From an uncultured Anaerolineae bacterium (GTDB lineage: Bacteria > Chloroflexota > Anaerolineae > Fen-1058), in the NCBI GenBank assembly GCA_964354595.1, contig CAYHAR010000003.1, positions 1-43,617 of the forward strand: a DNA stretch of 43,617 nt, written 5' to 3'. The position numbers and the translations under genes are program-made. Position 1 is the first letter of the stretch. Each line of letters opens with the position of its first letter. Positions 10,302-43,501 of the stretch are shown piece after piece. The notes under the pieces are model-generated. The model had not been told where the DNA came from, did no database searches, and saw nothing but the letters and a program-made list of their open reading frames with translations.

Positions 10302-12419
10302 TCATCGCCTCACGGTAATCTCTTGCAGCATCAGCCGGTCGCCGCGCGGCGTCATCCCATCGTACACCGTCAACCGGTGATGCGTAGGGCCGGCGTACCA
10401 GCCCACCGAGAGCCGATACTTGCCGGGCGGCGTGCCATCGGGAATCGTGAGGTTGTAAAGTTGCGCAAACACATCGCCGCTTTGCAGCGTGTCATAGAGC
10501 ATCGCCTGCCGGTCGTGCTGCGCCACCACTTGCCTGGGATCGCTCAACAAGTGCATGAACCCGACCAGAAACATGGGCGGCGGCTTGCGCGCGCGCCAGT
10601 ACGTCAGCACGCGAAGGTCTTTGCCAGCCTGCCGCTGTGCGCGCTCTACACGATAACCCAGGAACTCGATCGTATGATCGAAATCGGCCGGGAGCGGCGC
10701 TGCGCCGGTCGCGCCTGCTTCGGGACTCCACTCGACTTGAGAGGTCTGTGTCAATGAGACGATCTCGGCGAGCGGGCGCGCGGCGTCCAACATGTAGAGC
10801 GTCCCCTCGGAGAGCAGATCGTCGTGGGTGGGCGCGCTCCAATCCATCCACGGCAAGAGCGCGTCATCCAACATGGACGAATTAAAATCAAGCAGCATGA
10901 GCCGGGCGCGTGCGCCGGAGGGAATGACGAACGAATCACGGCAATCGAACCAGCGAATGGGCAAATCAGTCCGCCGCAAAACGAAAGGAAACGTCTGGCG
11001 CGGCGAGCGGAAAAAGTCTTCGTACTCGTTGAGGAAGGCGCTGCACGCCACGACCGGCGTCGCGTCGGCGCGCTGGTCGAGGTAGCGCGCTGCCTCGGCG
11101 ACGACGGCTTGATGATAGAATCGCACCTCGTCATTGTTCGCCCATTCGACAAAGTAGCCGGAATAATTCCACGCCGCAAAGCCGAGCCACCATACCGCCA
11201 GTGCCGTATAGCCCAACCCTTTGAGCCAGGCTAGGGGTGTACGCTTCAAAAGCGTTATCAGCTCAACCGCGCCCAGCCCGACGAAAGCGTAGGCCACTAT
11301 TTGCGCCGCGACGGTGCGCGTAAAATGCGGCGTGGGCGCGCTCAACATGCCGGGCGAAAGGCTCACGACGAGCCAGATCAACGCAAACGAGTTTTGGGGG
11401 CGACGCCATCGCCACACGGCCAGGCCGGCTCCGACAAGGAACAGAATGGCTCCGACCGGATCGAACACCGGTCTCCCGGCGACGTTGTATTGCCATTGCG
11501 GATCGCCGCGCCAGGTGAACATGCCCAACGTGGCGAGCGTCGTTTGAAGAGCAGACGTCGGGCGGCCCGCGGCGAGGTCTTGCAGCGAGTTGCTGAGCAT
11601 GTTGAAGCGCAGGTTCTCTGCCGGGTGCGCGTTGAGATAGAGCACGAGTGGCGCGGCCACGAGCGCCGCTGCTGCGAGGAACGCTGCCAGCCCCGGCAGC
11701 AGTCTTTTCCATTCGGCATGGCGCGTCAGCCCAAAATACGCCGCGAAAGCGAGGAAAGCCAACACCATGGGCCGCGCGCTGAGATAGCCATAGATCGAAA
11801 GCCCCAGCAGCACGCCAGAAAAAATAAACTTTGTCCCTTGCGTTCGCCTGTCCCCTTTAGGGAATGGCGTCTTTGCGGCGAAGCCTGACCACGCATCCCA
11901 GAACGCGCAGGCCGAGAGCGCCAACACGGGGACAATCGTGCCCGCGCGCAGTCCCGTGCGTCCGAGCAAGACCGACCAGAAGGATACTGCCTGTACCGCT
12001 GTCGCGATCAGCGCCACGTTGCGCCCGAACAATCGCCGCGCCAGCGCATAACACGCGGCCACGCCGAGCAGCCCCCACATCACATCGGGAAAGCGCATCC
12101 CCAGGGCGTTGCGCCCAATAGTTTGCAGCGAAACTGCCAGCGTGACGTGATACAGCCAGCCATGCTCTTGCAAATCGGGGCCATTCGGATTGGCTTGAAT
12201 TGTGAGCCAGGGAATGACGGGAGCGGCCGGACGCAACCACTCGGGCAACGCAGGCAGAATAAACTCGTCCACGATCTGCCCGTCGATGATTGCGTCAAAG
12301 TGCGGGCCAGGCGGAACGGCATCGAGCCGGTATGTGCGAAACCACGCCACTATCAACAACGCGACCATCGCTGCGGCCCATTGATATTTAACGTTTGACG
12401 TTTGACGTTTGAGATTCAT
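10302..12419 (-). CDS. GT-C fold (family 39/ArnT-PMT-like) membrane glycosyltransferase with a large C-terminal extracytoplasmic domain
   Basis: 705 aa. The N-terminal ~450 aa are polytopic and the C-terminal ~250 aa are soluble. Its ATG overlaps the upstream stop as ATGA at 12416-12419. Confidence 0.7.
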   Translation of the reverse strand: MNLKRQTSNVKYQWAAAMVALLIVAWFRTYRLDAVPPGPHFDAIIDGQIVDEFILPALPEWLRPAAPVIPWLTIQANPNGPDLQEHGWLYHVTLAVSLQTIGRNALGMRFPDVMWGLLGVAACYALARRLFGRNVALIATAVQAVSFWSVLLGRTGLRAGTIVPVLALSACAFWDAWSGFAAKTPFPKGDRRTQGTKFIFSGVLLGLSIYGYLSARPMVLAFLAFAAYFGLTRHAEWKRLLPGLAAFLAAAALVAAPLVLYLNAHPAENLRFNMLSNSLQDLAAGRPTSALQTTLATLGMFTWRGDPQWQYNVAGRPVFDPVGAILFLVGAGLAVWRWRRPQNSFALIWLVVSLSPGMLSAPTPHFTRTVAAQIVAYAFVGLGAVELITLLKRTPLAWLKGLGYTALAVWWLGFAAWNYSGYFVEWANNDEVRFYHQAVVAEAARYLDQRADATPVVACSAFLNEYEDFFRSPRQTFPFVLRRTDLPIRWFDCRDSFVIPSGARARLMLLDFNSSMLDDALLPWMDWSAPTHDDLLSEGTLYMLDAARPLAEIVSLTQTSQVEWSPEAGATGAAPLPADFDHTIEFLGYRVERAQRQAGKDLRVLTYWRARKPPPMFLVGFMHLLSDPRQVVAQHDRQAMLYDTLQSGDVFAQLYNLTIPDGTPPGKYRLSVGWYAGPTHHRLTVYDGMTPRGDRLMLQEITVRR
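12381..12415. repeat. Heptanucleotide tandem array, 5 x TTGACGT-like (TCAAACG in the coding direction)
   Basis: The units are TTGATAT TTAACGT TTGACGT TTGACGT TTGAGAT. The array encodes codons 2-13 of the 705-aa GT-C protein (MNLKRQTSNVKYQ). Confidence 0.8.
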
Positions 12420-13540
12420 TTGGGCATCGCGCGCAGCGCGTCATACGCGGGACGGACACGCATCTCGGCATACTCGGGGTAATTGATGGCCCACCAGTAT
12501 TGCTCGTCGTCCGGGGTGATGGCCGGATTTGCCATCGAAAGCGCAATCATCGGCCCGATCCACGGCGACCAGTTGCGCTTGGCGTACTGGTACGCTCGCA
12601 CAAGATAATCGGCTTGCTGCTCTTCGGTGACGGCGTGCCAGGTATAATCCGGGTTAACCAAGTCGGTCGTCCAACCGAATTCCAAGACGGCGACTTGCTT
12701 GTTGGCATCGCCATAGCGTTCCATGATCTTGCGAATGTCCTCGACGTGGCGGAAGCAGAAAAAGCGATTGCCGTTGTATTTGGCGGCAGCTTCATCAGGC
12801 GGAGTCTCGGGTGGCTCTTTGTAGCCTGCCGCGTGGACGCCGAGTAAATCAAAGTACGGCGCGGCTCCGGCCTGGTACATTTTCTCGATGAATACATCGT
12901 CGGGCATAGCCTCCGGCGGGCCGCTGCCGGTGGGTGACATGCCCGCCGAGATGACCAGCGCTCCCGGGTCAGCGGCCTTGATGCCGATGTAGCATACTTT
13001 GAGTAGCTCCACATACCGCGCCGGGTCCGGCGGCTGGTTGCCCCACTCGCGCGCCAGGTTCGGCTCGTTCCACACCTGGTAAGCGCGGATCTTGCCGCCA
13101 TAGTGTTCTGCCAACGCATGGCAAAAGTCGCCGAAATCTTGCAGGTTTTTCGGTGGCGCATTCTCCAACGGCTCGGTATCGGGAGCCTGCGCCCAGAACG
13201 GCTGATGGTCAATCCGCAAGATCAAATTGAGCTGGGTGTGACGGACTGCGCGAACCATCCGATCGGTGCGCGTCCAATCGTACTTGCCTTTCTCCAACCC
13301 TTCCACGTCGCGCCAGGCCACCGCTTGCTTGACCCAGGTAAAGCCCATGTTCTGAATGAGCACCAAGGCGCGGTCGGCGGATTCCCAGTCCCAATACAGA
13401 AAAGCCTGGATGCCGTACTCGGGCGAAGCCAGCCGCGCGCGCGGCCATGACGTCGGCGTGGGCGGCGCGGTGGGCTTCGGGCGCGTCGGGTTGCACGCGG
13501 CGAGGAGAATCAGCAAGAGTGCAAGTTGGCGTAAGCGCAT
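12416..13540 (-). CDS. Secreted/lipoprotein clan GH-A (GH5/GH39-like) glycoside hydrolase
   Basis: Signal peptide with lipobox (LLAAC). The motif YQVWNEPNL is the NEP acid/base signature of (beta/alpha)8 clan-A hydrolases. Confidence 0.7.
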   Translation of the reverse strand: MRLRQLALLLILLAACNPTRPKPTAPPTPTSWPRARLASPEYGIQAFLYWDWESADRALVLIQNMGFTWVKQAVAWRDVEGLEKGKYDWTRTDRMVRAVRHTQLNLILRIDHQPFWAQAPDTEPLENAPPKNLQDFGDFCHALAEHYGGKIRAYQVWNEPNLAREWGNQPPDPARYVELLKVCYIGIKAADPGALVISAGMSPTGSGPPEAMPDDVFIEKMYQAGAAPYFDLLGVHAAGYKEPPETPPDEAAAKYNGNRFFCFRHVEDIRKIMERYGDANKQVAVLEFGWTTDLVNPDYTWHAVTEEQQADYLVRAYQYAKRNWSPWIGPMIALSMANPAITPDDEQYWWAINYPEYAEMRVRPAYDALRAMPK

Positions 13541-13683: not shown

Positions 13684-14784
13684 CTATAGCAACGCTCTTA
13701 CAATCCGTTCGGCGGCGTGCCCATCGCCATACGGATTCACCGCGTGGGCCATGTGTTGATAAGCGGCCGGGTCGTCCAGCAATCGGCGGGTCCAGGTTAC
13801 GATAGGCTCGTAATGCGGCCCCACCAGTTGCACGGTGCCGGCTTCTACCCCCTCGGGCCGCTCGGTCTTGTTGCGGAGCACCAGCACCGGCTTGCCCAGC
13901 CCGGGCGCTTCCTCCTGGATGCCGCCTGAATCTGTCAAAACCATAAAACATCGCTTCATCAGGTAGACCAGCGGCAAATAGTCTAACGGATCAGTCAGCG
14001 TCACTCCCGGAACATTGCCCAAGATTCGATAGACTGGCTCTTGCACGTTCGGGTTGAGATGCACCGGGTAAACGATGTGAAGGTCGCCCGCATACATCCG
14101 CGCCATGTCCCGCAGCGCCCGGCAGATTTGCTCGAGCGGTTCCCCCAAGTTTTCGCGCCGATGCGCTGTCACCAGAATCAAGCGCTGCTCCCAGGGCACA
14201 TCTTTTAATGGGCCACCGGTTGGATCGTAGGGCCGATCGGCGACTGAGCGCAGAGCATCAATGACCGGGTTGCCGGTCACGTGGACGGTCTCTGGCGGGA
14301 CTTGCTCGCGCAGCAGGTTATCGCGCGCCCAAGCCGTCGGGGCAAAGTGGAGGTCGGCGACGACCCCCGCCACCCGGCGGTTGATTTCTTCCGGGAACGG
14401 TTGATGTTTGTCCAGCGTGCGCAAGCCGGCTTCCACATGTCCCACCCTGGCCTGGGCATAAAAAGCCGCCATTGAGGCCGCTGCAACTGTTGTGGTGTCC
14501 CCTTGCACCAGCACCCAGTCTGGGCGTTCTGTTTGAAGGATCGGTTCTAGCTTGGACAGCACCGCCGCCGCCACTTGCGTGGGCGATTGACTCTCTTGCA
14601 TGATGTCCAGGTCATAGTCGGGCGCGATGCCGAACAAATCCAGCACCTGGTCGAGCATCTGGCGATGCTGGGCGGTCACGCACACGCGGCTGATGATGCG
14701 GTCGGCGTGCCTCTGCAGCTCTTGCACCACCGGGGCCATTTTGATCGCTTCGGGGCGCGTGCCAAAGACGGAGAGCACTTTCAC
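13684..14784 (-). CDS. wecB: UDP-N-acetylglucosamine 2-epimerase (non-hydrolysing)
   Basis: VKVLSVFGTRPEAIKMAPV N-terminus and DSGGIQEEAPGLGKPVLVLR. The GTG start at 14784 lies 9 nt after GGAGG and overlaps the upstream stop as GTGA. Confidence 0.9.
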   Translation of the reverse strand: MKVLSVFGTRPEAIKMAPVVQELQRHADRIISRVCVTAQHRQMLDQVLDLFGIAPDYDLDIMQESQSPTQVAAAVLSKLEPILQTERPDWVLVQGDTTTVAAASMAAFYAQARVGHVEAGLRTLDKHQPFPEEINRRVAGVVADLHFAPTAWARDNLLREQVPPETVHVTGNPVIDALRSVADRPYDPTGGPLKDVPWEQRLILVTAHRRENLGEPLEQICRALRDMARMYAGDLHIVYPVHLNPNVQEPVYRILGNVPGVTLTDPLDYLPLVYLMKRCFMVLTDSGGIQEEAPGLGKPVLVLRNKTERPEGVEAGTVQLVGPHYEPIVTWTRRLLDDPAAYQHMAHAVNPYGDGHAAERIVRALL

Positions 14785-15713
14785 TGCCTGGTTCCTCCCC
14801 GGCGGCGTTCCAACTCGGCTTGGCGGGCGAGGAGGTCCGAGTCTTGCGGCCACCGCTCCAAAAGTGTTTGCAGAACCCGCTCCGTCATCAGGCCGGGCAC
14901 GCCATCAGCGAATTGCCGCACTTGGTAAGAGACGACACTGAGCAGAGTGGCGCGCTCCCACAATCCATCATCCACCAACCCGCCCATTGCCTGACCATGG
15001 TACTCGGCCATGCGAAAATCCAACGGGATATTCACGCTCTGCAACTCGAAAGATTTCAATTGCTCTTGATACATCCGGGCGGTCTTTTTATCTCCCATGT
15101 CGCGGTGTATCTTCGTCAGTTGGTAGAGCGCGTACAGGTTGCCGGGGTCGGCCTTGATCGCCCGGCGCCATAATTCAATGGCGACATCTCCACTGCCTTG
15201 CTCTGCGGCCACCTCGGCCAGCTTCAAGTAATTGGCGGCCAGGGGAAGCCGTCGTGAGCCGATATGGCCGGCCTCGTACGCTTGAATAGCCTCTTGAGTT
15301 TGCCCCAGAGTGTCGTACACGTCTCCCAGTTCCAGGGAGATCTGCGGGTTGCTTGGCCGCGCCGCTAACGCCGATTGGAGAATTTCGAGTGCTGCTTCGG
15401 GCTGCCCTTGGGAAAGATAGACACGGGCCAGCAAGCGCCGTGCCTGGACGTTACGCGGGTCCAAGCGGAGCGCTTCTTGCAGGTGCGCTGCCCCGGCACG
15501 CAGTTTCTCGGCGTCCACCACTTGCTCTGGGGCCAGGCGGTCCGAAAAAACTCTTACCAGCGCCATCTCCAGGGCCTGGCCCCCTGCATCCAGATGGTAG
15601 AGCGAAAGCAAGTAGGGCCCCAGCCCAAGCCCCAGCATTAGTACTAGCGCCAGGATGAGAGCGGGTACTCCCGCTTCCTTTATGATGTGGTGGCGCTTAG
15701 AATGGAGCGTCAT
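14781..15713 (-). CDS. Membrane-anchored TPR-repeat protein
   Basis: N-terminal TM helix followed by several 34-aa TPR-like units (e.g. ARVYLSQGQPEAALEILQSALAARP and LGDVYDTLGQTQEAIQAYEAG). ATGA overlap at 15710-15713. Confidence 0.75.
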   Translation of the reverse strand: MTLHSKRHHIIKEAGVPALILALVLMLGLGLGPYLLSLYHLDAGGQALEMALVRVFSDRLAPEQVVDAEKLRAGAAHLQEALRLDPRNVQARRLLARVYLSQGQPEAALEILQSALAARPSNPQISLELGDVYDTLGQTQEAIQAYEAGHIGSRRLPLAANYLKLAEVAAEQGSGDVAIELWRRAIKADPGNLYALYQLTKIHRDMGDKKTARMYQEQLKSFELQSVNIPLDFRMAEYHGQAMGGLVDDGLWERATLLSVVSYQVRQFADGVPGLMTERVLQTLLERWPQDSDLLARQAELERRRGGTRQ

Positions 15714-16552
15714 TGCGAATGATCATCCTCGTCCAAAAGTACGTGTTGGCCCACCTGATTCAGGAACAGCGTCAAAACTATTGCATAGACTCCAAATAAC
15801 ACAATGTAGAATCTTTTTTCGCCCAGAACAAAGGGCTTGCCCGCTGCCAGGCGCGTCAATAGCAAGTCAGCTTTGCTGACCCAATCCAGCCGACAATATG
15901 CGCGAAAGACCAGATCGCCACCCCCAAGTTCGTAGCCGAGGAAACGCGCGCCATCTGGATAGACATCGTCGCTATTGGCCCATACGCTGAATGCATTCGT
16001 CGGGTCAGCATTCTTGGACCTAAAATAGAAATAATAGTGCTGTCCTGGAGAGTTGGCGATTGGCGCAAACTCGAACGTCTGGTAGCCGGCGCGGGCAATC
16101 TGGTCGGGCGCGCCGACCGCGCGCGCCAGGTCGCGGTCAGATGCGGGGCTATCACGCAAGTGAAAAACGACTTCGGGTGGGTCAGGGCGGTCGTAGGCGT
16201 CAAAGTAAACGTCCACGCGGTAGAGATCGCGACAGGGAGCGACAAAGGTCTGTCCCACTGTTCTAGCGCCGGCAATCGGGCCTAAAGTCACGTCACCCAC
16301 TGGCTGGGAGATCGACGCTAGTTCCATTTGGGAGAACCAATGCATTGCCGCTCCCATCCACAGGGCAGTGCAGACTGCCAGAAAAATCAGCCGATGGGAT
16401 CGCGGCACACGATGTGATCTATTCTGTATAGCGGCCATAGATAACCAGAGGGTTGCTGCCAAAGTCATCCGCCACAAACTCGTGGACGGACAGAGCACAT
16501 CCCAGACTCGGTAGATCACAGTTTCGTAGTGATGACTTTCGTTGCCGTGCAT
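15710..16552 (-). CDS. Hypothetical membrane-anchored protein with an extracytoplasmic domain (start uncertain, possibly ATG 16468)
   Basis: TM segment RLIFLAVCTALWMGAAMHWF, a soluble domain, then a C-terminal TM. It may instead be the C-terminal part of the disrupted upstream gene, since it shares a frame with 16652..17440. Confidence 0.5.
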   Translation of the reverse strand: MHGNESHHYETVIYRVWDVLCPSTSLWRMTLAATLWLSMAAIQNRSHRVPRSHRLIFLAVCTALWMGAAMHWFSQMELASISQPVGDVTLGPIAGARTVGQTFVAPCRDLYRVDVYFDAYDRPDPPEVVFHLRDSPASDRDLARAVGAPDQIARAGYQTFEFAPIANSPGQHYYFYFRSKNADPTNAFSVWANSDDVYPDGARFLGYELGGGDLVFRAYCRLDWVSKADLLLTRLAAGKPFVLGEKRFYIVLFGVYAIVLTLFLNQVGQHVLLDEDDHSQ

Positions 16553-17440
16553 AGGCGACTACAGTCGCTACTGCGAGCCAAATCCGTGATCTACAGAGGC
16601 TAGGGCTTTCAATTCTTTCTGGCAACCGGGTCCTAGAGACACTCGTGAAGGTCAGGATAGCATAGAGCAGGATGACCAACAAGGTCGGCCACATCTGGGT
16701 GACCAACGAGATCCAGAAAAACCAGATGTCTCTATCCCCTGTTCGATACGTTGCCATATCAAAAGCATAGAAAGAATACCAGCATTGCTTGTCGAATCCA
16801 GCACCCAAAAGACAAGTCCGACAAAGGCTGCTGTTAGCCATTGGGGCCATGTGCGTCCTCGATATGCAACCAGTGAGAGAGGGGCCACTATCAGGATGAC
16901 GAACAAGGCGGTTTGTTTGGTATAGTAAGCAAGGACGTAAAGAAGCGCGCTGATTACCATGCCTCGCCGGTTTGAGTATTTGCGGCCCACGAAAAAGGCG
17001 AACAAGACCAGGAACAAGAACAAGGAATCCGTTCTCGCAATGTCCATCCAGGCGCCCGCGAATCGAAAAGTGGCAGCATAAATCCCCGCTGCGACCAAGC
17101 CGGAGATCGGATGTCCAGACGCCTCGGAAGAAATCAAGAACAGTACAAGAAAGCAACCTGTTGTGGATAGGATGGAAAGCAGCCGGGAAGCAACAAAACC
17201 AACCCCTATCAATTTCATCAGGGCAGCCGAGAGAAAGAAATAGAAGGGGTTGTAAAACGCCGGGATAAAAGATATAGAGGGCGCACTGTAGAGCGAGTTC
17301 CCTGCCAAAATCCACCGTATCTCGTCAATAGATGCTCCTTCCATCCACTCTATTTCAAACGGATAAAACAGGCGAAGGCCCGCCAATGGCAGAAATTGTA
17401 GGACATTCCCCAACGCGAGAACCAAAACGAGCAATGACAA
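16419..17440 (-). pseudogene. GT-C-like polytopic membrane protein interrupted by a frameshift near 16740-16800
   Basis: Track ORF 16652..17440 reads as a membrane protein up to ...AFVGLVFWVL, then becomes S/R/C/G-rich junk. The overlapping ORF 16419..17315 in another frame becomes membrane-like exactly there (YSFYAFDMATYRTGDRDIWFFWISLVTQMWPTLLVILLYAILTF). Confidence 0.45.
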
Positions 17441-17681
17441 AACTCCAGCCAGATAGGCTGCTCCTTTGCATATTCGAACCTCAACAATCGCCGCACACGG
17501 TCTCCTGTTTCTCTCGCCAGCACGTGATCACTGTTCTCAAGGCCATGGGCAAGAACGGGCTCCTGCACTGGATGAGAGGCTGCTTGCGTCTATTGGTACT
17601 GCGACTGAGTAAGCCGGCATCTGATGGGAGCTTTTAGAATCAACGTTGCACAAGCCCCGGCGTTGCCCAGGCAACTGAGAC

Positions 17682-19160: not shown

Positions 19161-19170
19161 GGATTCCCTC

Positions 19171-21048: not shown

Positions 21049-21055
21049 ATCTTGA

Positions 21056-23090: not shown

Positions 23091-23716
23091 TCCTGTTCTT
23101 TAGCCAGCCGCTCACAATCGGCCTGGGGGATCAAAATCTCGGTCTTGCATTTTGGACAGACCATTCGCATACCTGATTCGTTCCCCTCGTCCTGCAAAGC
23201 AGTCAGCTTTTCTCCACACGGGCACACAAAGCCGCGCAGCCGCGCCGGGTTGCCATAGACCAGCCCATAATCTGGTACGTCGCGTGTGACGACCGCGCCC
23301 GCGCCGATCATGGCCCATCGCCCAATCGTCACGCCGCACACGATAGTGGCGTGCGCGCCAATCGAAGCGCCCGCGCGCACCAGCGTTTCGCTCACCGTCC
23401 AGTCGGCGAGGCTTTTCAGCGAGCCATCCGGGTTGATGGCGCGCGGCTGCTTGTCGTTGGTGAACACGCAGTGCGGCCCGCAAAACACGCCATCTTCCAG
23501 CGTCACGCCGTGATAGACCGAAATGCCGTTTTGAATCTTGACATGGTTGCCGATGCGAACGCCCGAGTCAATGTAGACGCCTTTGCTCAAGGTGCAATTG
23601 CGGCCTATTACAGCCTGCTCGCGCACCTGGCAATGCTGCCAGACTTTGGTGCCTTCGCCAAGACTGGCTTGAGGCGAAACATCGGCAGTAGGATGAACAA
23701 AGAATTGGCGTTTCAT
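23087..23716 (-). CDS. Left-handed beta-helix amino-sugar N-acetyltransferase (WbpD/QdtC-like) with a C-terminal zinc ribbon
   Basis: FVHPTADVSPQASLGEGTKVWQHCQV followed by hexapeptide repeats. The tail has CPCGEKL...CPKCKTE. The start is taken at MKRQFF (23716); the track ORF starts at 23779. Confidence 0.75.
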   Translation of the reverse strand: MKRQFFVHPTADVSPQASLGEGTKVWQHCQVREQAVIGRNCTLSKGVYIDSGVRIGNHVKIQNGISVYHGVTLEDGVFCGPHCVFTNDKQPRAINPDGSLKSLADWTVSETLVRAGASIGAHATIVCGVTIGRWAMIGAGAVVTRDVPDYGLVYGNPARLRGFVCPCGEKLTALQDEGNESGMRMVCPKCKTEILIPQADCERLAKEQE

Positions 23717-26225: not shown

Positions 26226-26235
26226 TGGTCGGCGA

Positions 26236-29369: not shown

Positions 29370-29372
29370 GGC

Positions 29373-32131: not shown

Positions 32132-32147
32132 CGATCGTCTCCTTGAC

Positions 32148-34414: not shown

Positions 34415-34417
34415 GGC

Positions 34418-35848: not shown

Positions 35849-35850
35849 CT

Positions 35851-37281
35851 CTACTGATCCACGCGCACTACGCTGAGGCCGGGCAGCCGCAGATCGAATG
35901 CGACTTGTTGACGATGAGCTGCCAGCCATTCCCGCACGATGGGCGGCGCCTCTGCAAAAACGTCGAAAGGAGGCGCTGTGTATACGCGATGGTTGGACAC
36001 GTGCGAGCTCCACCATACCAGCCAGACTCGACTATGTTGGGCCGCCGCTTCCTCCAGAGTCTTGGACTCTTCCCCAGGCCATAGCACCGCATACGGCCAC
36101 TCTCGTGTTCGATAAGCCCACGTTCCGATGATGCCCTCTGTGCCTTCCATGACGACGATGTCGGTTGAAGCTAGCTCCGTCTCGATAGCGGCGGTCACGC
36201 CACGCCAGTCTTCTTTGACGAAATGTGGATCAGTGTAGAGTCGAAGTGTGCCCCAGCCCATTGCGGCCAGCACAACCGATGCGGTCAGCAGCCGCCAGAT
36301 CGCCGCCCGCCGGGCTGTGATGCCCAACGCCAAGAGCAACAGATAAGCGGGCAGGGTGGTCAAGAGGTATCGGTCGGAATAGTAGGGACGCCGCAGCGAG
36401 AGCAAAAAGACAAACCCGATAGGCAGCGCCAGCCACCAGACCAGCCATCGTCGTTCCTCACTCCACGGGAACAAGCCCGCCAGAAAGACCAGGGCAGTCC
36501 CCGCCGCCAATAGGGCAACGGCGGGCGTGAGAGTTTCCACATCAATCGTGGTAAAGTTCCAGAGCGTGTAGAAGGGAGCCAGCGGACCGGGGCGAGGAAT
36601 CCAGCTCAAGCCAGCCGGGTAAAGCCCGCGCGACAGGTACCCGATCAGCCAGGGAGTCAGGGGCACGAATGCCATGGCCTGCGCCAGGAACCAACGCCTC
36701 ACCAGTTGTGTCTGTCGCAGCCGAGGCAGCAAATAAACCAACTGGACATAGACCAAGGAAAATGTTCCATAGTGAGTCAGGTAGGCCAAAGCGCTCCACA
36801 CCGTCAATGTTGCCCAGCGGCGTTGACCGCGCACCAGCGAAATAAAAGCATCCATCGCCCACAAACCGAACAATACCATCGGCGCATACATTCGCCCGTC
36901 CTGGGAATACCAGATGTGGAACGGGCTGGCTGTCAGCAACAAAGCAGCTATCAAACCAACCGTTTTTCCGCTCAACCGGCGGCCCAAACGATAAATAGAT
37001 GGAATAGCCAAGATGCCCAAGGCCGCCGACGGGAAACGAAGCGCATACTCGCTGGCCCCTGCCAGTCCCAGCCAGAGCCGCATGAACAGGTAGTAGAGCG
37101 GAGGCGTATTTGCGCTCAAGCTCATCACTTGCCAGGCTGCGCTCAACGGCAGTCGGGCCAGCATGAGAGTAAAGCACTCATCAAACCACAAGCTCTTGAC
37201 GCTCAGTTGATACAATCGGAGCGCCATCGCCAACAACGTGATGAACAATACTATCCACTGAGACAGTCGCCCCTTGTTCAT
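35851..37281 (-). CDS. GT-C fold family 39-like membrane glycosyltransferase (tandem paralogue B)
   Basis: Starts MNKGRLSQWIVLFITLLAMALRLYQLSVKSLWFDECF at ATG 37281 (ATGA overlap at 37278-37281). Also 476 aa. The upstream 128 codons of the track ORF are an Arg/Ala-rich shadow. Confidence 0.8.
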   Translation of the reverse strand: MNKGRLSQWIVLFITLLAMALRLYQLSVKSLWFDECFTLMLARLPLSAAWQVMSLSANTPPLYYLFMRLWLGLAGASEYALRFPSAALGILAIPSIYRLGRRLSGKTVGLIAALLLTASPFHIWYSQDGRMYAPMVLFGLWAMDAFISLVRGQRRWATLTVWSALAYLTHYGTFSLVYVQLVYLLPRLRQTQLVRRWFLAQAMAFVPLTPWLIGYLSRGLYPAGLSWIPRPGPLAPFYTLWNFTTIDVETLTPAVALLAAGTALVFLAGLFPWSEERRWLVWWLALPIGFVFLLSLRRPYYSDRYLLTTLPAYLLLLALGITARRAAIWRLLTASVVLAAMGWGTLRLYTDPHFVKEDWRGVTAAIETELASTDIVVMEGTEGIIGTWAYRTREWPYAVLWPGEESKTLEEAAAQHSRVWLVWWSSHVSNHRVYTAPPFDVFAEAPPIVREWLAAHRQQVAFDLRLPGLSVVRVDQ

Positions 37282-38768
37282 CGGCCCTCGCGCGCGTAAA
37301 TCACAGCCTGATCGTCGCTGTAAGCCAATCGCCAATTGGGCTGCGTTGCCAGCATCGTCGCCAAAAAGCTGTCGCGCTCGGTCAGCGCCAACCGCACGCC
37401 ATAGCGATCCAGCGCCTCTTGCCAGCCGGGGCGAATGAACATCACCTTGAAATACTCGCGCAAAAATTCGTCGTCGTAAAGGTCGGTGCGCCCGTCCACA
37501 AACACCGGCTCTTGCGGCAGCGCCCACACCAGGTAGCCGCCCCAGTTGTAGCTGTTGTACATCGGCCCCGTGAGATTGTTCTGCTTGAGCCACTCGACCG
37601 CGCGAACCGGCGCGGTCTGCTGTTGCGCCTTGTCTATCATCTGCGGCGAAAGCGCCACGCCGCATTTGATCAACACAGCCAAGGTGACGAGAACCAAGAT
37701 CATCCAGTTCAGCGCGCGCGACAAGGCCGGATGCACGTCTTTGCTGACCGAAGCAGGCAGCTTGACGCGCGCCGCCAACGACTCGACGATAGGTTGCATC
37801 TGCCGGGTGAGTATCGGCGCGAGGACGAGCGCCAGCGGCGCAATGTTGCGCCGGGCCAGGAATGCGCTGTAGCCAAACACCATCACCACGATCAGATCAC
37901 TCCAATCCCAGCGCCGCCCCGAAAAGCCGACCGCAGCCAGCAGCGCAAAGAGGAGCCACAACATCGGCTGCTCGTAGAGGTTGTGGAAATCCGGCGAGGC
38001 CCACTCTTGGATAAAGCCCTGTAACGCCTTGATGCCGACCGTGCGGAAGGGCAGCGTCCACGTTCCGAAGGTGTACGGATTGACCAAGAGTGCCAGCCCA
38101 CACAAGATGCCCGCGCCCATCAGCCAGCCGATCTCTTTCCAGGTCATCACCTCGGGCGCGTCCGCGCGCCCGGTGAGGCGATTCAGCGTCTCGCCCGCGA
38201 TGACCGAGCCGATCAGCATCAATCCGAGCGCATAGCCGCCGTGCACGTTGGCCCACAGGACAAAGAGGGGAATGAGCACCCACAGGCGGTTGACCTGTCG
38301 CCATTTGAGCAGGTATACCACGTAGCTGGTGACGCCCAGCAGTGCAAACGAAAGCATCTGCGGGCGCGGCGACCAGATGACGGACGACGTCGTCGCCGCC
38401 AGCACGACGACAAACGCGCGCAAGAGTGGCTGGCCCTCCGTCTGCCGGTACACAAAAATAAACGCGATGATGACCAACGCCGCCACTAGCAATGCCAGTG
38501 CCGCGTCGCCGCCTATCACGCGCGCCTGGTACAGGCCGACCTGCGCCAGCCAGTACACGTCTGTCCATGGTTTGCCGCGCACGGTGTGCGAAAACTCGTC
38601 CGCGTAAGGGGTGCGTCCCGTAGTAACGATGGCCCGTCCCGCGCCCAAGTGCCACCATGCGTCCGAGTCAGCTGGCGTGCGGACCGCCATCGCAAACAGC
38701 GCTAGGAACAGCACCGCGACGATCAGACGCTCGAATGTCAGTATGCTCTGGCCTTGTCGCCCGGTCAT
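37278..38768 (-). CDS. Polytopic GT-C-like membrane protein with a C-terminal soluble domain (tandem paralogue 1)
   Basis: First loop PADSDAWWHLGAGR. 496 aa. Highly similar to 38765..40267. Confidence 0.7.
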   Translation of the reverse strand: MTGRQGQSILTFERLIVAVLFLALFAMAVRTPADSDAWWHLGAGRAIVTTGRTPYADEFSHTVRGKPWTDVYWLAQVGLYQARVIGGDAALALLVAALVIIAFIFVYRQTEGQPLLRAFVVVLAATTSSVIWSPRPQMLSFALLGVTSYVVYLLKWRQVNRLWVLIPLFVLWANVHGGYALGLMLIGSVIAGETLNRLTGRADAPEVMTWKEIGWLMGAGILCGLALLVNPYTFGTWTLPFRTVGIKALQGFIQEWASPDFHNLYEQPMLWLLFALLAAVGFSGRRWDWSDLIVVMVFGYSAFLARRNIAPLALVLAPILTRQMQPIVESLAARVKLPASVSKDVHPALSRALNWMILVLVTLAVLIKCGVALSPQMIDKAQQQTAPVRAVEWLKQNNLTGPMYNSYNWGGYLVWALPQEPVFVDGRTDLYDDEFLREYFKVMFIRPGWQEALDRYGVRLALTERDSFLATMLATQPNWRLAYSDDQAVIYAREGR

Positions 38769-40267
38769 TTTCCCTCGCGTGCATAGAGCACGGCTTGATC
38801 GTCGCTATAGACCAGCCGCCAGTCAGGTTGCGTCGCCAGCAGCGTCGCCAAAAAGCTGTCGTGCTCGGTCAACGCCAAGCGCACGCCGTACCGATCCAGC
38901 ACTTGTTGCCAGCCGGGACGGACGAACGTCACCCTGACATACTCGCGCAAAAATTCGTCGTCGTAGAGGTCGGTGCGCCCGTCCACAAACACCGGCTCTT
39001 GCGGGAGCGCCCACAACAAATAGCCGCCCCAGTTGTAGCTGTTGTACATCGGCCCGGTCAGGCGATTTTGCTTTAGCCACTCGACCGCGCGAACGGGCGC
39101 AGTCTGCTGCTGCGCCTTGTCAATCATTCGAGGCGATAGCTCGACCCAACACCGGAGCAGCACGGCCACGGCGACGAGAATCACGATCAGCCAATTCAAC
39201 ACGCCCGATAGAGAGGGCGTTAGGTCTTGGCGCGCCGCAGCCGGCAGCTTGACGCGCGCCAGCACAGCTTCGAGGATGGGCTGCGCTTGTCGCGACAGGA
39301 TCGGCGCGACGACCAGCGCGAACGGCGCAATGTTGCGCCGCGCCAGGAACGCGCTGTAGCCAAACACCGCCACCACGATCAGGTCGCTCCAATCCCAACG
39401 CCGATCCGAAAAACCAGCCAACGCCAGCAGCGCGAACAAGAGCCACAACACCGGCTGCTCGTACAAATTGTGAAAATCGGGCGAGGCCCATTCCTGGATG
39501 AAACCTTGCAGCGCCTTGATGCCGACCGTGCGGAAGGGCAGTGTCCACGCTCCGAAGGTGTACGGATTGACCAAGAGCGCGAGCCCACACAAGAGGCCCA
39601 CGCCTATCAGCAGGCCGATCTCTTTCCAGGTCATCACCTCGGGCGCGTCCGCGCGCCCGGTGAGGCGATTCAGCGTCTCGCCCGCGATGACCGAGCCGAT
39701 CAGCATCAATCCGAGCGCATAGCCGCCGTGCACGTTGGCCCACAGGACAAAGAGGGGAATGAGCACCCACAGGCGGTTGACCTGTCGCCATTTGAGCAGG
39801 TATACCACGTAGCTGGTGACGCCCAGCAGTGCAAACGAAAGCATCTGCGGGCGCGGCGACCAGATGATCGAAGTTGCGGTTGCCGCCAGCACAACGACGA
39901 ATGCCCGAAGGAACGGCGCGCCCTCCATCTGCGGATACACGAACGCGAACGCCACGACGACGAGTATCGCCGTGAGCGCGGCGAGCGCCGCATCACCGCC
40001 CAGCGCGCGCGCCTGGTACAGGCCGACTTGCGCCAGCCATTGCACATTCGTCCACGGCTTGCCGCGCGCCGTGAGCGAAAACTCGTCGGTGAAGGGAATG
40101 CGCCCCGTCGTGACAATGGCTCGTCCCGCACCCAAGTGCCACCACGTGTCCGTGTCGGCCGGCGCGCGGACCGCCATCGCAAATAGCGCGAGGAACAACA
40201 CCACGACGGTCAGGCGGTTGACCGTGAGAATCGCGCGAGGAGATGAATCGGTCGGGATGGCGCTCAT
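38765..40267 (-). CDS. Polytopic GT-C-like membrane protein with a C-terminal soluble domain (tandem paralogue 2)
   Basis: First loop PADTDTWWHLGAGR. 500 aa. ATGA overlaps at both ends (38765-38768 and 40264-40267). Confidence 0.7.
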   Translation of the reverse strand: MSAIPTDSSPRAILTVNRLTVVVLFLALFAMAVRAPADTDTWWHLGAGRAIVTTGRIPFTDEFSLTARGKPWTNVQWLAQVGLYQARALGGDAALAALTAILVVVAFAFVYPQMEGAPFLRAFVVVLAATATSIIWSPRPQMLSFALLGVTSYVVYLLKWRQVNRLWVLIPLFVLWANVHGGYALGLMLIGSVIAGETLNRLTGRADAPEVMTWKEIGLLIGVGLLCGLALLVNPYTFGAWTLPFRTVGIKALQGFIQEWASPDFHNLYEQPVLWLLFALLALAGFSDRRWDWSDLIVVAVFGYSAFLARRNIAPFALVVAPILSRQAQPILEAVLARVKLPAAARQDLTPSLSGVLNWLIVILVAVAVLLRCWVELSPRMIDKAQQQTAPVRAVEWLKQNRLTGPMYNSYNWGGYLLWALPQEPVFVDGRTDLYDDEFLREYVRVTFVRPGWQQVLDRYGVRLALTEHDSFLATLLATQPDWRLVYSDDQAVLYAREGK

Positions 40268-41862
40268 CCGTTTTTCGTCATGGACGATGGCAATACGTCT
40301 GGCGGCGACACTCGGCGTGAGAGATCGTGGAACACGTGGTACGACCCGATTTGCGTCTCACGGTAGGTCACACCCAGACGAGCGAATCCTTGGCGCAAAA
40401 GCGCGTCCAGCTTGGGATGGTTCGTCGTGACGTACACGACGTTGGCGGCTTGCTCCACCGCTTGCGTGTAGGGTGGATAACGATCGTCGCGGTAAGTATA
40501 GCGCAAGTCGGCCTTGTAAGGCAAATGCGGCGCGAGGATGATTTCTTCGTTGGAAAGGAAAGCGATGGGATACGCGACCCAATAGTTGCCATAGCCGCGC
40601 GTCTGGCCGCGCTCGCGCAAAAAGCGAATCAGTTCCGCGTCGTAGCGGTGATCCACCTGCGTAATCTCTTCGAATTGTGTCGTGATGCCGGGCGGATTCT
40701 TGAGCGCGGCCTGAACTGTGCCGACCAAGTTGAAAATCAAAACGATTCCCAACAGCGCCCACGCCCATCGCCCGATGCGCTCTCGCAATGCGGCCAGAGC
40801 TTGGGCGGTGAAAATGAACAGCGGCAGGTAAAGCGGCAAGAAATAACGTCCCGAAGGATCGCCGCCAAAGGGAGTCAGCACAAAGCCGAGGAACAGTGTG
40901 GCGCAGACGCCCCACAGCAAGATTCCATTTTTCCGAAAGCTGCGAGCTTTCGGGAAGATAAGCGCGCCCAGGTAAAGCGCCAAGGTCGGCGCAGCCAGCC
41001 ACAGCGGCGGCCCCTCGATGCTCCAGGGGAAACGCAATCCAAACAGCGCGGGCAATCCCAGGACGATAAAGTTGAAAACTCGCATTCCGACGTTGCCGAA
41101 CAAGCTGCCGGCCGTGGCCGTGCTTTTCACTGCGTCCCCGGATAGCTCTGCCAGGGCAACGCCCACGCGACTCTGGTTACCCAGCCACCAGGGCAGGCTG
41201 CCGAGGGCAAATCCCAACGCTGCCAACAGGGTAACCGCACCAGACGATTGAAGCACAGCCTTGCGCAACCGCCAGGCCAGCCACAGCACGACGGGAACGA
41301 GATAGACGAGTGTGAGACCAAAAGCCCAGAACCCCAAGCCAGCTACCAGCCCCCATGCCAGCCATAATCTTTTACGATGTATGTCTTCATAGCCCAGGCG
41401 ATGCCCCCACCAGAGCAAGAGATTGCCCACCAGCATCGCCTCGCCATAGCCGCCCAGCGTCGCGGTCGTGTAGAGCGTCAATAGCACGGGGGGGAAGGCA
41501 AACAGCAACGCGGTCAATAATGCAACACGTTGCGAGCCGGTCAAGCGGAGCGCGACAGCATAACCGGTCAGCAGCACGGCCAGAAAGAGTACGACTTGCA
41601 CCACCCGCACCGCCAGCACCGATTCACCCATCAACGTGCAAGCCCCGGCGATGAGAAAAGCGTCGAGGCTGCCCATGTACGCCTGGCCGTAAAAGAACGC
41701 CGGCAGCTCTCCTTGCAAAATGTGCCGCGCCATCAATGCGACGATGGCCTCGTCGCTGTTGAACGGCACGGCGTCGGCGGCCAGCAGCGCGACCTTGAGC
41801 GCCAGCGTCAAGACCGCGATCACGACCAACGGGCCAATTCGCCGGAGCGCCGCAGTTGCCAC
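40264..41862 (-). CDS. GT-C fold family 39/ArnT-like membrane glycosyltransferase (first gene of the minus-strand array)
   Basis: First loop PFNSDEAIVALMARH. The GTG start at 41862 follows GGGAGAGG by about 6 nt. Confidence 0.75.
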   Translation of the reverse strand: MATAALRRIGPLVVIAVLTLALKVALLAADAVPFNSDEAIVALMARHILQGELPAFFYGQAYMGSLDAFLIAGACTLMGESVLAVRVVQVVLFLAVLLTGYAVALRLTGSQRVALLTALLFAFPPVLLTLYTTATLGGYGEAMLVGNLLLWWGHRLGYEDIHRKRLWLAWGLVAGLGFWAFGLTLVYLVPVVLWLAWRLRKAVLQSSGAVTLLAALGFALGSLPWWLGNQSRVGVALAELSGDAVKSTATAGSLFGNVGMRVFNFIVLGLPALFGLRFPWSIEGPPLWLAAPTLALYLGALIFPKARSFRKNGILLWGVCATLFLGFVLTPFGGDPSGRYFLPLYLPLFIFTAQALAALRERIGRWAWALLGIVLIFNLVGTVQAALKNPPGITTQFEEITQVDHRYDAELIRFLRERGQTRGYGNYWVAYPIAFLSNEEIILAPHLPYKADLRYTYRDDRYPPYTQAVEQAANVVYVTTNHPKLDALLRQGFARLGVTYRETQIGSYHVFHDLSRRVSPPDVLPSSMTKNG

Positions 41863-41884
41863 TAAACGCCTCTCCCTCTATAAT
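41856..41884 (+). promoter_or_regulatory. Sigma-70-like promoter predicting a leaderless mRNA for the gene starting at 41891
   Basis: TTGCCA (41856-41861), an exact 17-nt spacer, then TATAAT (41879-41884). The ATG at 41891 lies 6 nt after the -10 box and no RBS is possible. Confidence 0.4.
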
Positions 41885-41890
41885 ATCGCC

Positions 41891-43501
41891 ATGCGCCAAT
41901 TCGTGCTCTCACGCCGGATCAACCTCTTGACCATCGCCTTGATCGTCTTGGCCGTTGCGCTTCGTCTCATCCCGGGCCCGCGCACAATTGACGATGCCTT
42001 TATCACGTTCCGCTACGCGCGCAACATTGTTCACGGCGTCGGCTTTATCTACAACGCGGGCGAGCGCGTGCTGGGCACCACGACCCCGCTTTATACGTTG
42101 TGGATGGCGACGCTCGCCCTGATCTCTGGTAGCGAAAATTTTCCTCTCTTTGCTCTCGTCACCAACGCTCTGGCCGATGCTGCCAGCACGTATCTACTTT
42201 ACCACTTGGGGCGGCGGTTGAGCAATAGCTCGTTGGTCGGATGGGCCATCGCGCTATTGTGGGCTGTCTCTCCGATGAGCGTGACGTTTGCGATTGGCGG
42301 GATGGAGACCTCGGTCTTTATCTTGCTGATGCTCGCCACGTTCGCTGCGCACATGGAGCGCCGCCCTTATCTCACGGCTGTCCTGGCGGCTCTCTCGCTC
42401 CTCACCCGCCCCGATGCCGGGCTGATTATCGTACTCGTGTTCGCCCAACTGCTCTGGGAGAATCTCAGATCTCGGTCTCTGAATCCAGTCTCTCCACCCT
42501 CCACTCTCCACCCTCCACTTGCTACACTCTACGCTCCACGCTCTACGCTCTACGTCGCGGGGCTGTGGATTCTGGTGTTTGCGCTGGTCATTGCGCCGTG
42601 GGCCATCTTTGCCACCGCATACTTTGGCAATCCGCTTTCACAGAGCATGTTCGCCAAGAGCATCGCTTATCGCTTGGAGCCTGAAGAAGGCTTGGTGCGG
42701 CTGCTCCAACATTTCAGTGTTCCGTTTTTCGAAAGCGACGTGTTCGACCTGGGCGGGTTGATCCGGCTCGTCGTCTACCTGGCCTTGTACCTCATCGCGG
42801 CGCTGGCGGCCTTTCGGCGCGAGCCACGCAGCTTGCCGTTCTTTGCTTATCCGCTCTTGTACGCTGCCGCGTTCGCCATTGCCAATCCGCTCATCTTTCG
42901 TTGGTATCTGGCCCCGCCCACGCCCGGCTATATGCTCGGCATCTTGCTTGGCATCTATCAGGTCGCAGGTCGCAGGTCGCGGGTCGCAAGCAAGTCTCGC
43001 TTCTCATTTCTCATTTCTCATTTGATATTTGGAACTGTTGTGGCAATCTATATGGTCCTGTCCCTTGTTGCCTGGACGCTTCACCCTGATCACGGCCCGG
43101 ATCGGCCCGCGCCGCAAATGGCCTACATTCAGCTAGAGCTATTCTATCACCAAGTCGCCGCCGACCTCAAGCCGCACGTCAGGCCGGACACCGTCATCGC
43201 CGCGGGCGATATTGGCGCGCTGGGCTATGACACAAACGCGCGCATCCTCGACACGCTCGGCCTCATCAGCCCGCAGACGCTGCGCCACTATCCGCTCGAC
43301 CCGAGCCTGTACGTTATTCCTTACGCCATGTCCCCACAGTTGATCCTCGATCAGCAACCGGATTGGCTCGTCGCGCCCGAAGTGTATCTGCGCCGGGGCG
43401 TTCTCCTCAACACGCAATTCCAGGCGCAATACCAGCTCCTTGAAACCATCCCCACTGACATTTATGGCAGCCACGGCCTGCTCGTCTTTCGCCGCAAATA
43501 G
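41891..43501 (+). CDS. GT-C-like (arabinofuranosyltransferase-like) polytopic membrane protein
   Basis: Starts MRQFVLSRRINLLTIALIVLAVALRL, with first-loop motif IDDAFITFRYARN. 536 aa from ATG 41891. The upstream 57 codons of the track ORF are antisense to the divergent gene. Confidence 0.75.
   Translation: MRQFVLSRRINLLTIALIVLAVALRLIPGPRTIDDAFITFRYARNIVHGVGFIYNAGERVLGTTTPLYTLWMATLALISGSENFPLFALVTNALADAASTYLLYHLGRRLSNSSLVGWAIALLWAVSPMSVTFAIGGMETSVFILLMLATFAAHMERRPYLTAVLAALSLLTRPDAGLIIVLVFAQLLWENLRSRSLNPVSPPSTLHPPLATLYAPRSTLYVAGLWILVFALVIAPWAIFATAYFGNPLSQSMFAKSIAYRLEPEEGLVRLLQHFSVPFFESDVFDLGGLIRLVVYLALYLIAALAAFRREPRSLPFFAYPLLYAAAFAIANPLIFRWYLAPPTPGYMLGILLGIYQVAGRRSRVASKSRFSFLISHLIFGTVVAIYMVLSLVAWTLHPDHGPDRPAPQMAYIQLELFYHQVAADLKPHVRPDTVIAAGDIGALGYDTNARILDTLGLISPQTLRHYPLDPSLYVIPYAMSPQLILDQQPDWLVAPEVYLRRGVLLNTQFQAQYQLLETIPTDIYGSHGLLVFRRK
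42492..42554. repeat. Heptanucleotide tandem array inside a CDS: (CTCCACY)x4, one degenerate unit, (CTCYACG)x4
   Basis: The units are CTCCACC CTCCACT CTCCACC CTCCACT TGCTACA CTCTACG CTCCACG CTCTACG CTCTACG. That is 63 nt, or 21 codons, translated as PPSTLHPPLATLYAPRSTLY. Confidence 0.85.
42959..43028. repeat. Composite heptanucleotide tandem array inside a CDS: (CAGGTCG)x3 + CGGGTCG, two degenerate units, (TTCTCAT)x3 + TTGATAT
   Basis: Read directly from the sequence. It is translated as QVAGRRSRVASKSRFSFLISHLIF. Confidence 0.85.

Follow-up and report, generated by a model that had tools for sequence, protein, structure and literature searches.

The 43,617-bp metagenomic contig CAYHAR010000003.1 of an uncultured Anaerolineae bacterium (Chloroflexota), examined here in its entirety and referred to as the window, contains an operon-like locus of approximately 33 kb, between 10.3 and 43.5 kb, that is dominated by genes for membrane glycosyltransferases of the GT-C type; all absences reported below apply to these 43.6 kb. 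The locus consists of an array of 23 co-directional minus-strand genes, read from 41862 down to 10302 and designated here g23 to g01, and one divergent plus-strand gene, g24, at 41891–43501. Fifteen genes are of the GT-C type, 14 of them intact and one, g05, interrupted by frameshifts. They span at least eight sequence families and account for 69% of the 33.2 kb, and with such a share their concentration is not a matter of chance. An earlier reading, made from the sequence alone and hereafter called the original prediction, had counted 15 such genes in this interval, and the count is right, with the correction that 15710–17440 is one gene broken by frameshifts and stops.

All 15 genes are GT-C-type at the level of the fold or superfamily. 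Each encodes a polytopic protein that has a cytoplasmic N-terminus and, in its first extracytoplasmic loop, one conserved acidic residue or two, and hydropathy analysis combined with a motif check placed this acidic motif directly after the first transmembrane helix in every one of them. The seven motifs quoted in the original prediction are all present at this position, WFDE occurring in both g19 and g20, and DSDAWWH of g21 being matched by DTDTWWH in g22. That these are GT-C proteins rather than other membrane proteins, as had been proposed, is borne out by Pfam and NCBIfam matches, an AftB profile, Foldseek searches with AlphaFold (AF2) models and a local hhalign network, which joins 12 of the genes (g01, g05, g07, g13, g15–g20, g23 and g24) and links the two controls, WbaP and the hydrolase, to none of the GT-C families. 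The polytopic proteins were also considered as Wzx, Wzy or ABC components, and this was rejected for want of any family or profile support. From what is known of related families, the 15 proteins would be expected to take their sugars from polyprenyl-phosphate donors on the external side of the membrane.

Five minus-strand genes match PMT_2 (PF13231) above the Pfam gathering threshold of 26.1 bits, namely g01 (10302–12419; 37.8 bits), g13 (26236–27774; DAYYY motif, 42.3 bits), g15 (29373–30911; WYDEAF motif, 61.8 bits), g19 (34418–35848; 50.8 bits) and g20 (35851–37281; 60.3 bits). The 705-residue g01 protein ends in a soluble domain of approximately 270 residues and is linked to g15 and g20 by hhalign at 91–92%, and g19 and g20 are tandem paralogues with 56% identity. 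Two further minus-strand genes fall slightly under the threshold, and their orthologues pass it. One of them is g23 (40264–41862; SDEAIV motif), the first gene of the minus-strand array and a PMT/PMT_2-type gene, which scores 24.9 bits for PF13231 and 19.2 bits for PF02366, both just sub-threshold. The other is g05 (15710–17440), whose N-terminal part scores 24.1 bits for PMT_2. Three-frame translation and tblastn with a 510-residue orthologue from a related locus (L083) revealed two frame changes and three in-frame stops within this single gene, which has either decayed to a pseudogene or been misassembled.

The GT87 family is represented by g16 (30908–32131, minus strand), a PimE-type gene that matches PF09594 at 63 bits against a gathering threshold of 25 bits; the PMT-like and GT87-like families named in the original prediction are both present by matches above threshold. 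A second GT87-like gene, g18 (33221–34414, minus strand), has no direct Pfam match itself, and orthologues at 47–49% identity carry PF09594, while hhalign relates it to g24 (82%), g23 (75%) and g16 (60%). Between these two lies g17 (32148–33350, minus strand, start uncertain), a polytopic protein matching NF046093 (‘AZOBR_p60025 cell surface glycopolymer formation protein’) at 156.7 bits against a cut-off of 150. Together with an hhalign score of 88% to the g24 family, this match points indirectly to a GT-C-like protein; the blastp match of g17 to g16 has an E-value of 6.5e-4. The product of g07 (19171–21048, minus strand; YDEPQH motif), which contains a large central soluble domain and probably starts at M35 of the maximal open reading frame (ORF), has no Pfam match of its own. 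Its DUF2142-like character is indicated instead by its homologues, 13 of which at 29–62% identity carry PF09913 (DUF2142), including those at 55–62%, and some of which carry PMT_2, and by a blastp alignment to the DUF2142 protein of L083 (1e-10) that covers the PWQxxDEPxH motif. At E ≤10, Pfam gave nothing useful for g07, g14, g17, g18, g21 or g22, and single-sequence searches of g17, g18 and the secreted protein g06 against solved structures gave no meaningful match.

The divergent gene g24 (41891–43501, plus strand; DDAFITFRY motif), the exact gene call of which is found in two other assemblies, is AftB-like. A profile of its family, built from 27 sequences, matches the mycobacterial AftB structure 9dlf at 3e-11 across a stretch of ~210 N-terminal residues that contains the DD motif, and PIG-M (glycosylphosphatidylinositol (GPI) mannosyltransferase 1) at 1.6e-5, and D34 and D35 are invariant within the family. 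An assignment as AftB proper was rejected, since the homology is limited to those N-terminal ~210 residues and the score against the AftB equivalog NF041481, 25.9 bits, is far below the cut-off of 1050.

Three of the GT-C genes on the minus strand belong to two large families for which neither a Pfam model nor an informative name exists: g14 (27771–29369), g21 (37278–38768) and its tandem paralogue g22 (38765–40267; 83% identity). The g21 family comprises 36,750 representative clusters at E ≤1e-3 and 10,906 at E ≤1e-30, with source names that are solely ‘hypothetical protein’ or the mis-call ‘MFS permease’, and the g14 family has at least 443 homologues. A profile of the g21 family has no match among PDB sequences, any solved oligosaccharyltransferase included, so that a comparison of folds was needed. 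AF2 models were built for g21 (pLDDT 86, pTM 0.87) and g14 (pLDDT 90, pTM 0.90) from family alignments and were searched against the PDB with Foldseek, and for both models every match with an E-value below ~0.05 was a GT-C enzyme, STT3 and AglB coming first and ArnT, PglB, DPY19, AftD, AftA, AftB, ALG9/12, Pmt4 and Emb following. The top 17 matches of g21 were all GT-C (best STT3/AglB TM 0.63, E 3e-7), as were the top 28 of g14 (best STT3/AglB TM 0.57, E 1e-9). Moreover, the g21 family has an invariant D34-x-D36-xx-W-H motif, which reads D34-S/T-D36 in g21 and g22 and represents a diacidic DXD motif, whereas g14 has D43-x-x-D46 in the first external loop, with D46 invariant in its family. An invariant glutamate of g21 is situated in an external loop of low confidence, which is probably mobile. 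In profile comparisons by hhalign, the g14 family shows a marginal relation to the g21 family (26–30%, C-terminal part only) and an insignificant one to the g24 family.

Oligosaccharyltransferases are defined by the WWDYG motif, which makes up the pocket for the sequon Ser/Thr. In g21 its place is taken by S-Y-N-W-G-G (residues 406–411), and in g14 S-E-S-V-G is aligned to it in the 3VU0 alignment; none of g14, g21 and g22 matches the STT3 Pfam family at E ≤10. Because the motif is replaced, these proteins are by definition not oligosaccharyltransferases, and this identity was rejected for all three. The profile of the g14 family has a weak match (E 0.004) to PDB 3VU0, which is the C-terminal core unit of Archaeoglobus AglB-S2 (PMC3703281). 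It may be speculated that g14, g21 and g22 transfer a diphosphate-linked glycan to some other acceptor.

The remaining genes of the array, likewise on the minus strand, include a priming enzyme and a set of sugar-nucleotide genes. The product of g12 (24816–26225) is a WbaP/WcaJ-type polyprenyl-phosphate hexose-1-phosphate transferase (TIGR03025, 436 bits against 296; also PF02397 and PF13727), and that of g03 (13684–14853) is the UDP-GlcNAc 2-epimerase WecB (TIGR00236, 486 bits against 210; PF02350, 2e-116). Next to g12 lie g11 (23836–24816; PF16363, 1.2e-62), an SDR sugar-nucleotide dehydratase or decarboxylase with a likely start at M23 of the maximal ORF and with LegB, RmlB and ArnA-C-like matches under cut-offs; g10 (23087–23779; PF00132, 1e-19), a hexapeptide-repeat sugar N-acetyltransferase resembling NeuD, PglB and VioB (TIGR03570, 8e-31, under its cut-off); g09 (22011–23090; PF01041, 2.9e-130), a DegT-family sugar aminotransferase whose ArnB/PseC-like matches are under their cut-offs; and g08 (21056–22003; PF01370, 1.7e-66), an NAD-dependent sugar-nucleotide 4-epimerase like TviC or GalE (NCBIfam TviC, 1e-77, under its cut-off). 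The g08–g11 set is typical for an N-acetylated amino-deoxy sugar, with no equivalog cut-off reached, and together with g03 it appears to provide for the synthesis of UDP-ManNAc and of an N-acetylated amino sugar. A membrane-anchored TPR protein with a single N-terminal hydrophobic helix is encoded by g04 (14781–15713; several TPR Pfam families, best 1.8e-20). The WbaP-type transferase, the amino-sugar nucleotide module and the TPR protein of the original prediction are all recovered by these matches, and its two secreted glycosidase-like proteins fared unequally. The product of g02 (12416–13540) is a secreted PslG-like, GH39-type glycoside hydrolase (PDB PslG 4zn2, 5e-16; weak GH39 and GH10 Pfam matches), while g06 (17682–19220) encodes a secreted protein recognised only as a distant paralogue of g02 (blastp 8e-10; hhalign 96%), which has no Pfam match and no PDB sequence match.

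The genes of the array are tightly packed. Eight junctions are 4-bp overlaps of the ATGA type, such as that in which the start of g20 overlaps the stop of g21, and these start/stop overlaps imply translational coupling; most of the remaining gaps are shorter than 20 bp, the widest being 241, 143, 99 and 56 bp. For several genes, the start is probably located downstream of the N-terminus of the maximal ORF (at 21048, 24816, 35848, 37281 and 41891). A simple scan of the locus for promoters and terminators was uninformative, with counts near those in shuffled sequence. Directly after g01, the downstream boundary is formed by tRNA-Thr (10147–10219) and tRNA-Tyr (10041–10126), both called by ARAGORN on the minus strand. 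At the opposite end, two other assemblies of the same sequence reach ~650 bp past the window and contain the start of a methyltransferase gene. This class-I S-adenosylmethionine methyltransferase (Methyltransf_23, 8e-33; L001:2442–3152, minus strand) is convergent with g24, and in the two nearest annotated relatives the genes that come after it are of the histidine-phosphatase, DUF3090 and kinase-like types. The methyltransferase may act on sugars, and the idea that it is a universal partner of g24 was rejected, as the adjacency is found only in close relatives (6 loci).

No match to GT2, GT4, Wzx, Wzy or ABC families was obtained with Pfam on any main ORF of the window, and tblastn with two GT2 proteins of relatives as queries found no GT2-like sequence in any of its frames, in agreement with the original prediction. 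Among the constituents of a Wzx/Wzy cluster, the window contains the priming transferase and lacks GT2/GT4 enzymes, Wzx, Wzy and a chain-length regulator. Neither a polyprenyl-phosphate sugar synthase nor a donor flippase was detected in it by Pfam or tblastn, and the makings of a three-component system are accordingly incomplete there. PMT_2-, GT87- and AftB-type GT-C enzymes depend on donor synthases and flippases. As the window is a whole contig, the donor synthases may lie elsewhere, and a genome-wide absence cannot be claimed. Adjacent GT2, GT4 or Wzy genes, which would have made this an ordinary exopolysaccharide cluster, do not occur on the tRNA side and are unlikely, by synteny, on the other.

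Comparison with related loci provides a view of which part of the locus is conserved. The g24 family is the most widely conserved member, confirmed at no fewer than 266 loci whose labels are almost all Anaerolineae or Chloroflexota; 80 related loci were compared, and Pfam annotation was obtained for six relatives. One g24 homologue (L015, contig CAYTME010000209.1) comes from a contig that was assigned to the cyanobacterium ‘uncultured Pleurocapsa sp.’, through either mis-binning or a rare transfer. The closest species-representative genome is a Thermoflexales metagenome-assembled genome, with protein identities of 66–71%. Among the 80 loci, g23 is found divergent beside g24 in 28, g21/g22 in approximately 20, g13 in 13 and g16 in 10. 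The relative order g13-g15-g16-g21-g23, with g24 divergent, is kept in part or whole in about 30 of the 80, loci that retain neighbouring GT-C genes, and all six genes (g13, g15, g16, g21, g23 and g24) occur together in three. In close relatives of g14, the cluster ends right after this gene, or giant CLIPPER/DUF11-repeat surface proteins come next, and the WbaP module is missing at that position, which indicates that the locus is composite. On sequence comparison, 26.2–43.5 kb appears as a conserved Anaerolineae GT-C core and 10.3–26.2 kb as a variable, exopolysaccharide-like half, and it is proposed that the core, g13–g24, is an ancestral Anaerolineae module to which the WbaP half was a lineage-specific addition.

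The variable half also holds a dip in G+C content, to 0.53–0.54 at 16000–20000 compared with ~0.60 elsewhere in the locus, and this dip overlaps the broken gene g05, the second hydrolase-like gene g06 and the start of g07. The composition of the segment suggests a mosaic or recently acquired origin. Across the GT-C core (26000–43617), the plus strand has a strong and sustained AT skew of +0.16 to +0.25, which probably results from biased codon and amino-acid usage in the membrane-protein genes of the minus strand.

The clusters of relatives are not free of GT2 genes. In three of the six annotated relatives (L083, L085 and L088), a short GT2 of 242, 261 or 332 residues lies inside the cluster, so that the lack of a cytoplasmic glycosyltransferase, put forward in the original prediction, does not stand as a conserved property of the system. 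Two of these GT2s come closest, with NCBIfam scores that all stay under the cut-offs, to AglJ, dolichyl-phosphate hexose transferase, PpgS and ArnC, each of which attaches a sugar to polyprenyl phosphate. In L085, a membrane protein of PF03706 (LPG_synthase_TM; 15329–16303) is encoded ~1.8 kb upstream of the 261-residue GT2 (18153–18938), with one gene between them, and the two are candidates for a donor flippase and a polyprenyl-phosphate sugar synthase. Other gene contents were observed in some relatives. A carbamoyltransferase (Carbam_trans_N/C, 586 aa) stands among the GT-C genes of a Thermoflexales relative (L084:7998–9758) and hints at carbamoylated sugars in that lineage. Giant CLIPPER/DUF11-repeat proteins (1552, >1766 and >2778 aa) are encoded on the same strand directly downstream of the GT-C cluster at L086:7526–13482 and L088:18483–21473, and are possible glycosylation substrates.

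Beyond the tRNA genes, the window contains two tandem DUF881 genes (8514–9945, minus strand; 29% mutual identity) and then an unrelated plus-strand group. This group comprises a trio at 3733–7496, encoding a beta-ketoacyl synthase, a radical S-adenosylmethionine enzyme and a class I/II (alpha-oxoamine-synthase-like) aminotransferase, followed by an ORF at 7493–8116 for a 207-residue secreted or lipoprotein-like protein without a family match. The genes at 3733–8116 may belong to a specialised lipid or amino-lipid pathway. A small plus-strand ORF at 8172–8402 has paired CxxC motifs and a Gly/Cys-rich tail (MPVYEYYCRDCKIKFE...) and, judged by eye, resembles the FmdB-type zinc-ribbon regulatory protein family. 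At the far end, a DpnII/MboI-type restriction endonuclease gene (173–838, minus strand; PF18742, 2.4e-57) is adjoined by several small ORFs at 850–2140.

GT-C enzymes act on the external side of the membrane with polyprenyl-phosphate-linked donors (PMC11127046, PMC3485146). The locus may accordingly be read, with about an even chance of being right, as directing the biosynthesis of an envelope glycoconjugate, the glycan of which would grow mainly at the outer surface of the cytoplasmic membrane. By analogy with mycobacterial arabinan and lipoarabinomannan (LAM) synthesis, the best reading of its mode of action is that a lipid-linked primer is built up into the glycan outside the membrane. Under this scheme, the nucleotide-sugar enzymes would supply the primer sugar, WbaP (g12) would load it onto polyprenyl phosphate at the cytoplasmic side, and the primer would be flipped by a flippase encoded elsewhere. 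The PMT_2, GT87, AftB-like, DUF2142-like and AZOBR-family enzymes would then carry out stepwise extension from polyprenyl-monophosphate sugars, each with its own sugar or linkage, using donors from short GT2 (or UbiA-type) synthases that would be encoded elsewhere in this genome and within the cluster in some relatives. Either en-bloc transfer of a diphosphate-linked intermediate to a non-sequon acceptor, such as the wall or a surface protein, or further elongation would fall to g14, g21 and g22, and the PslG-like hydrolases would trim or release the polymer. Of the extracytoplasmically built glycopolymer in the original prediction, the part resting on the GT-C proteins and on the lack of Leloir glycosyltransferases in the window stands, while a general absence of donor genes does not follow from a single contig, and the composite nature of the locus is an addition to be made.

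Several observations weigh against this reading. The donor synthases and the flippase are missing from the sole DNA available for the organism, and the roles given to individual enzymes would rest on analogy at the level of families. In 18 of 43 large loci, the g24 homologue is found alone, and hence co-function of all 15 genes is not guaranteed; the tandem duplicates g19/g20 and g21/g22 and the broken g05 indicate an array that is evolving by duplication and decay. These last features also provide the basis of an alternative in which there is no single system and independent GT-C paralogues of different pathways have been grouped by tandem duplication and by shared needs of membrane-protein expression. 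The identities within the tandem pairs (56% and 83%), the decay of g05, the variation from 1 to 9 GT-C genes per 21 kb among relatives and the mosaic origin suggested by the G+C dip at 16–20 kb are all compatible with it. Yet five families keep their order and orientation in many genomes, the 4-bp overlaps imply translational coupling, and the array is interleaved with one priming enzyme and one sugar-nucleotide module, and such an accumulation of paralogues is considered very improbable.

Protein glycosylation is a rather doubtful explanation, under which PMT-like and STT3-fold enzymes would directly modify proteins that are secreted or displayed on the surface, such as the giant repeat proteins of Anaerolineae, with no free or wall-linked polysaccharide being made. 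Seven genes are of the PMT/PMT_2 family, the folds of g14 and g21/g22 are closest to STT3, AglB and PglB, the AglB-S2 core unit can be aligned with the C-terminal domain of g14, the array includes a TPR protein, and in two relatives the CLIPPER/DUF11-repeat genes follow the GT-C cluster on the same strand. This adjacency, however, is limited to 2 of the 6 annotated contexts, the window lacks a gene for a candidate acceptor protein, the WWDYG motif with its sequon pocket is absent, and WbaP, the PslG-like hydrolases and enzymes of the GT87 and AftB-like kinds belong more typically to the assembly of polysaccharides or lipoglycans. It is unlikely that the locus is an ordinary Wzy- or ABC-dependent exopolysaccharide cluster seen in part, in which the GT2/GT4 backbone enzymes lie elsewhere and the GT-Cs add side chains after export in the manner of Gtr. 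WbaP, the nucleotide-sugar genes, a PslG-like hydrolase and the TPR protein are classic components of such clusters, GT2 genes exist in the clusters of relatives, and the window is a single metagenomic contig. But 15 decorating enzymes without a backbone enzyme in 43.6 kb would be unprecedented, the locus has a defined boundary at each end, GT2, GT4, Wzx and Wzy genes are absent from both flanks in relatives, the GT2s of relatives are short (242–332 aa) and synthase-like rather than of polymerising or backbone types, and it is the GT-C core, not the WbaP module, that is conserved.

Among characterised systems, extracytoplasmic extension of a glycoconjugate by GT-C enzymes has its closest counterpart in the arabinogalactan and lipomannan/LAM pathways of Mycobacterium and Corynebacterium, where many GT-C enzymes (Emb, AftA-D, MptA-C and PimE) extend a lipid-linked primer outside the membrane from decaprenyl-phosphate-arabinose and polyprenyl-phosphate-mannose. 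The comparison drawn in the original prediction is apt, as g24 is homologous to the N-terminal catalytic module of AftB, g16 and g18 fall in the PimE family GT87, and a phosphoglycosyl transferase primes the carrier in both. The mycobacterial genes, however, are scattered or form small clusters together with Leloir glycosyltransferases (GlfT, PimA/B) and donor synthases, whereas here 15 GT-C genes form one array without these, in the Chloroflexota, with no donor pathway of the UbiA/DprE type visible and with an AftB equivalog score of 26 against 1050 bits. Three-component systems (GtrA/B/C, ArnC/E-F/T, the streptococcal GacI-L and Citrobacter GT136; PMC11127046) share the polyprenyl-phosphate-sugar donor and the GT-C enzyme acting after export, and the short GT2 in the clusters of relatives, in L085 also the PF03706 protein nearby, adds to the likeness. 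Each of these systems has one GT-C enzyme that places one side-chain sugar on a Leloir-built polymer, in contrast to the 15 GT-C enzymes here, which are accompanied in the window by neither backbone enzymes nor a synthase or flippase.

Other systems resemble parts of the locus. STT3, AglB and PglB are the best fold matches of g14 and g21/g22 and share with them an acidic DxD-type motif in loop 1 and a small C-terminal domain, but WWDYG is replaced, there is no Pfam STT3 match and the g21 profile is without a sequence match to solved oligosaccharyltransferases. The Wzy-dependent Psl and colanic acid clusters are like the 10.3–26.2 kb half in their WbaP/WcaJ-type primer enzyme, sugar-nucleotide enzymes and PslG-like hydrolases, and differ in that GT2/GT4 enzymes, Wzx, Wzy and PCP/OPX proteins are not found in the window. 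Bacterial protein O-mannosylation, carried out in Actinobacteria by GT39 PMT enzymes (PMC11727336), shares PMT/PMT_2 membership and the loop-1 acidic motif; Actinobacteria have one PMT per genome together with Ppm1, whereas seven PMT_2-type paralogues stand here beside other GT-C families. A search of the literature on AZOBR_p60025 and on GT-C enzymes and oligosaccharyltransferases in Chloroflexi found no description of this locus or of the Pfam-less g14 and g21 families. CAZyme surveys go no further than recording GT83 as one of the most abundant glycosyltransferase families in Anaerolineae and Caldilineae (PMC6306507, PMC11650866).

Assembly by GT-C enzymes outside the membrane is already known from Corynebacteriales and from the three-component systems. 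What sets this locus apart is the extreme density of GT-C genes without Leloir enzymes, and a core that is conserved across a major and poorly understood class. Chloroflexota are without genes for lipopolysaccharide and outer-membrane biogenesis, some of their envelopes are multilayered and diderm-like, and the material outermost in them has been put down to ‘polysaccharides or proteins’ whose origin is unknown (PMC13319060); from Herpetosiphon, a complex of peptidoglycan and polysaccharide was reported decades ago, as cited elsewhere (reference 32 in PMC3368417). A bolder and rather unlikely version of the proposal is that the locus specifies a phylum-specific Anaerolineae assembly line made up almost wholly of GT-C enzymes, including two large STT3-fold families without a sequon pocket that would act on a non-Asn acceptor, and that it builds the chemically undefined layer or sheath on the outside of Chloroflexota, in the form of a polysaccharide bound to peptidoglycan or of glycans carried by giant surface proteins. 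The g14 and g21 families represent unrecognised STT3-like folds that are worth adding to family databases and are of interest for the evolution of oligosaccharyltransferases. The locus offers a conserved gene set that could underlie the outer layers of the Chloroflexota envelope, and it suggests that the assembly of glycans outside the membrane, for which mycobacteria are the best-known case, has been elaborated independently in another monoderm phylum.

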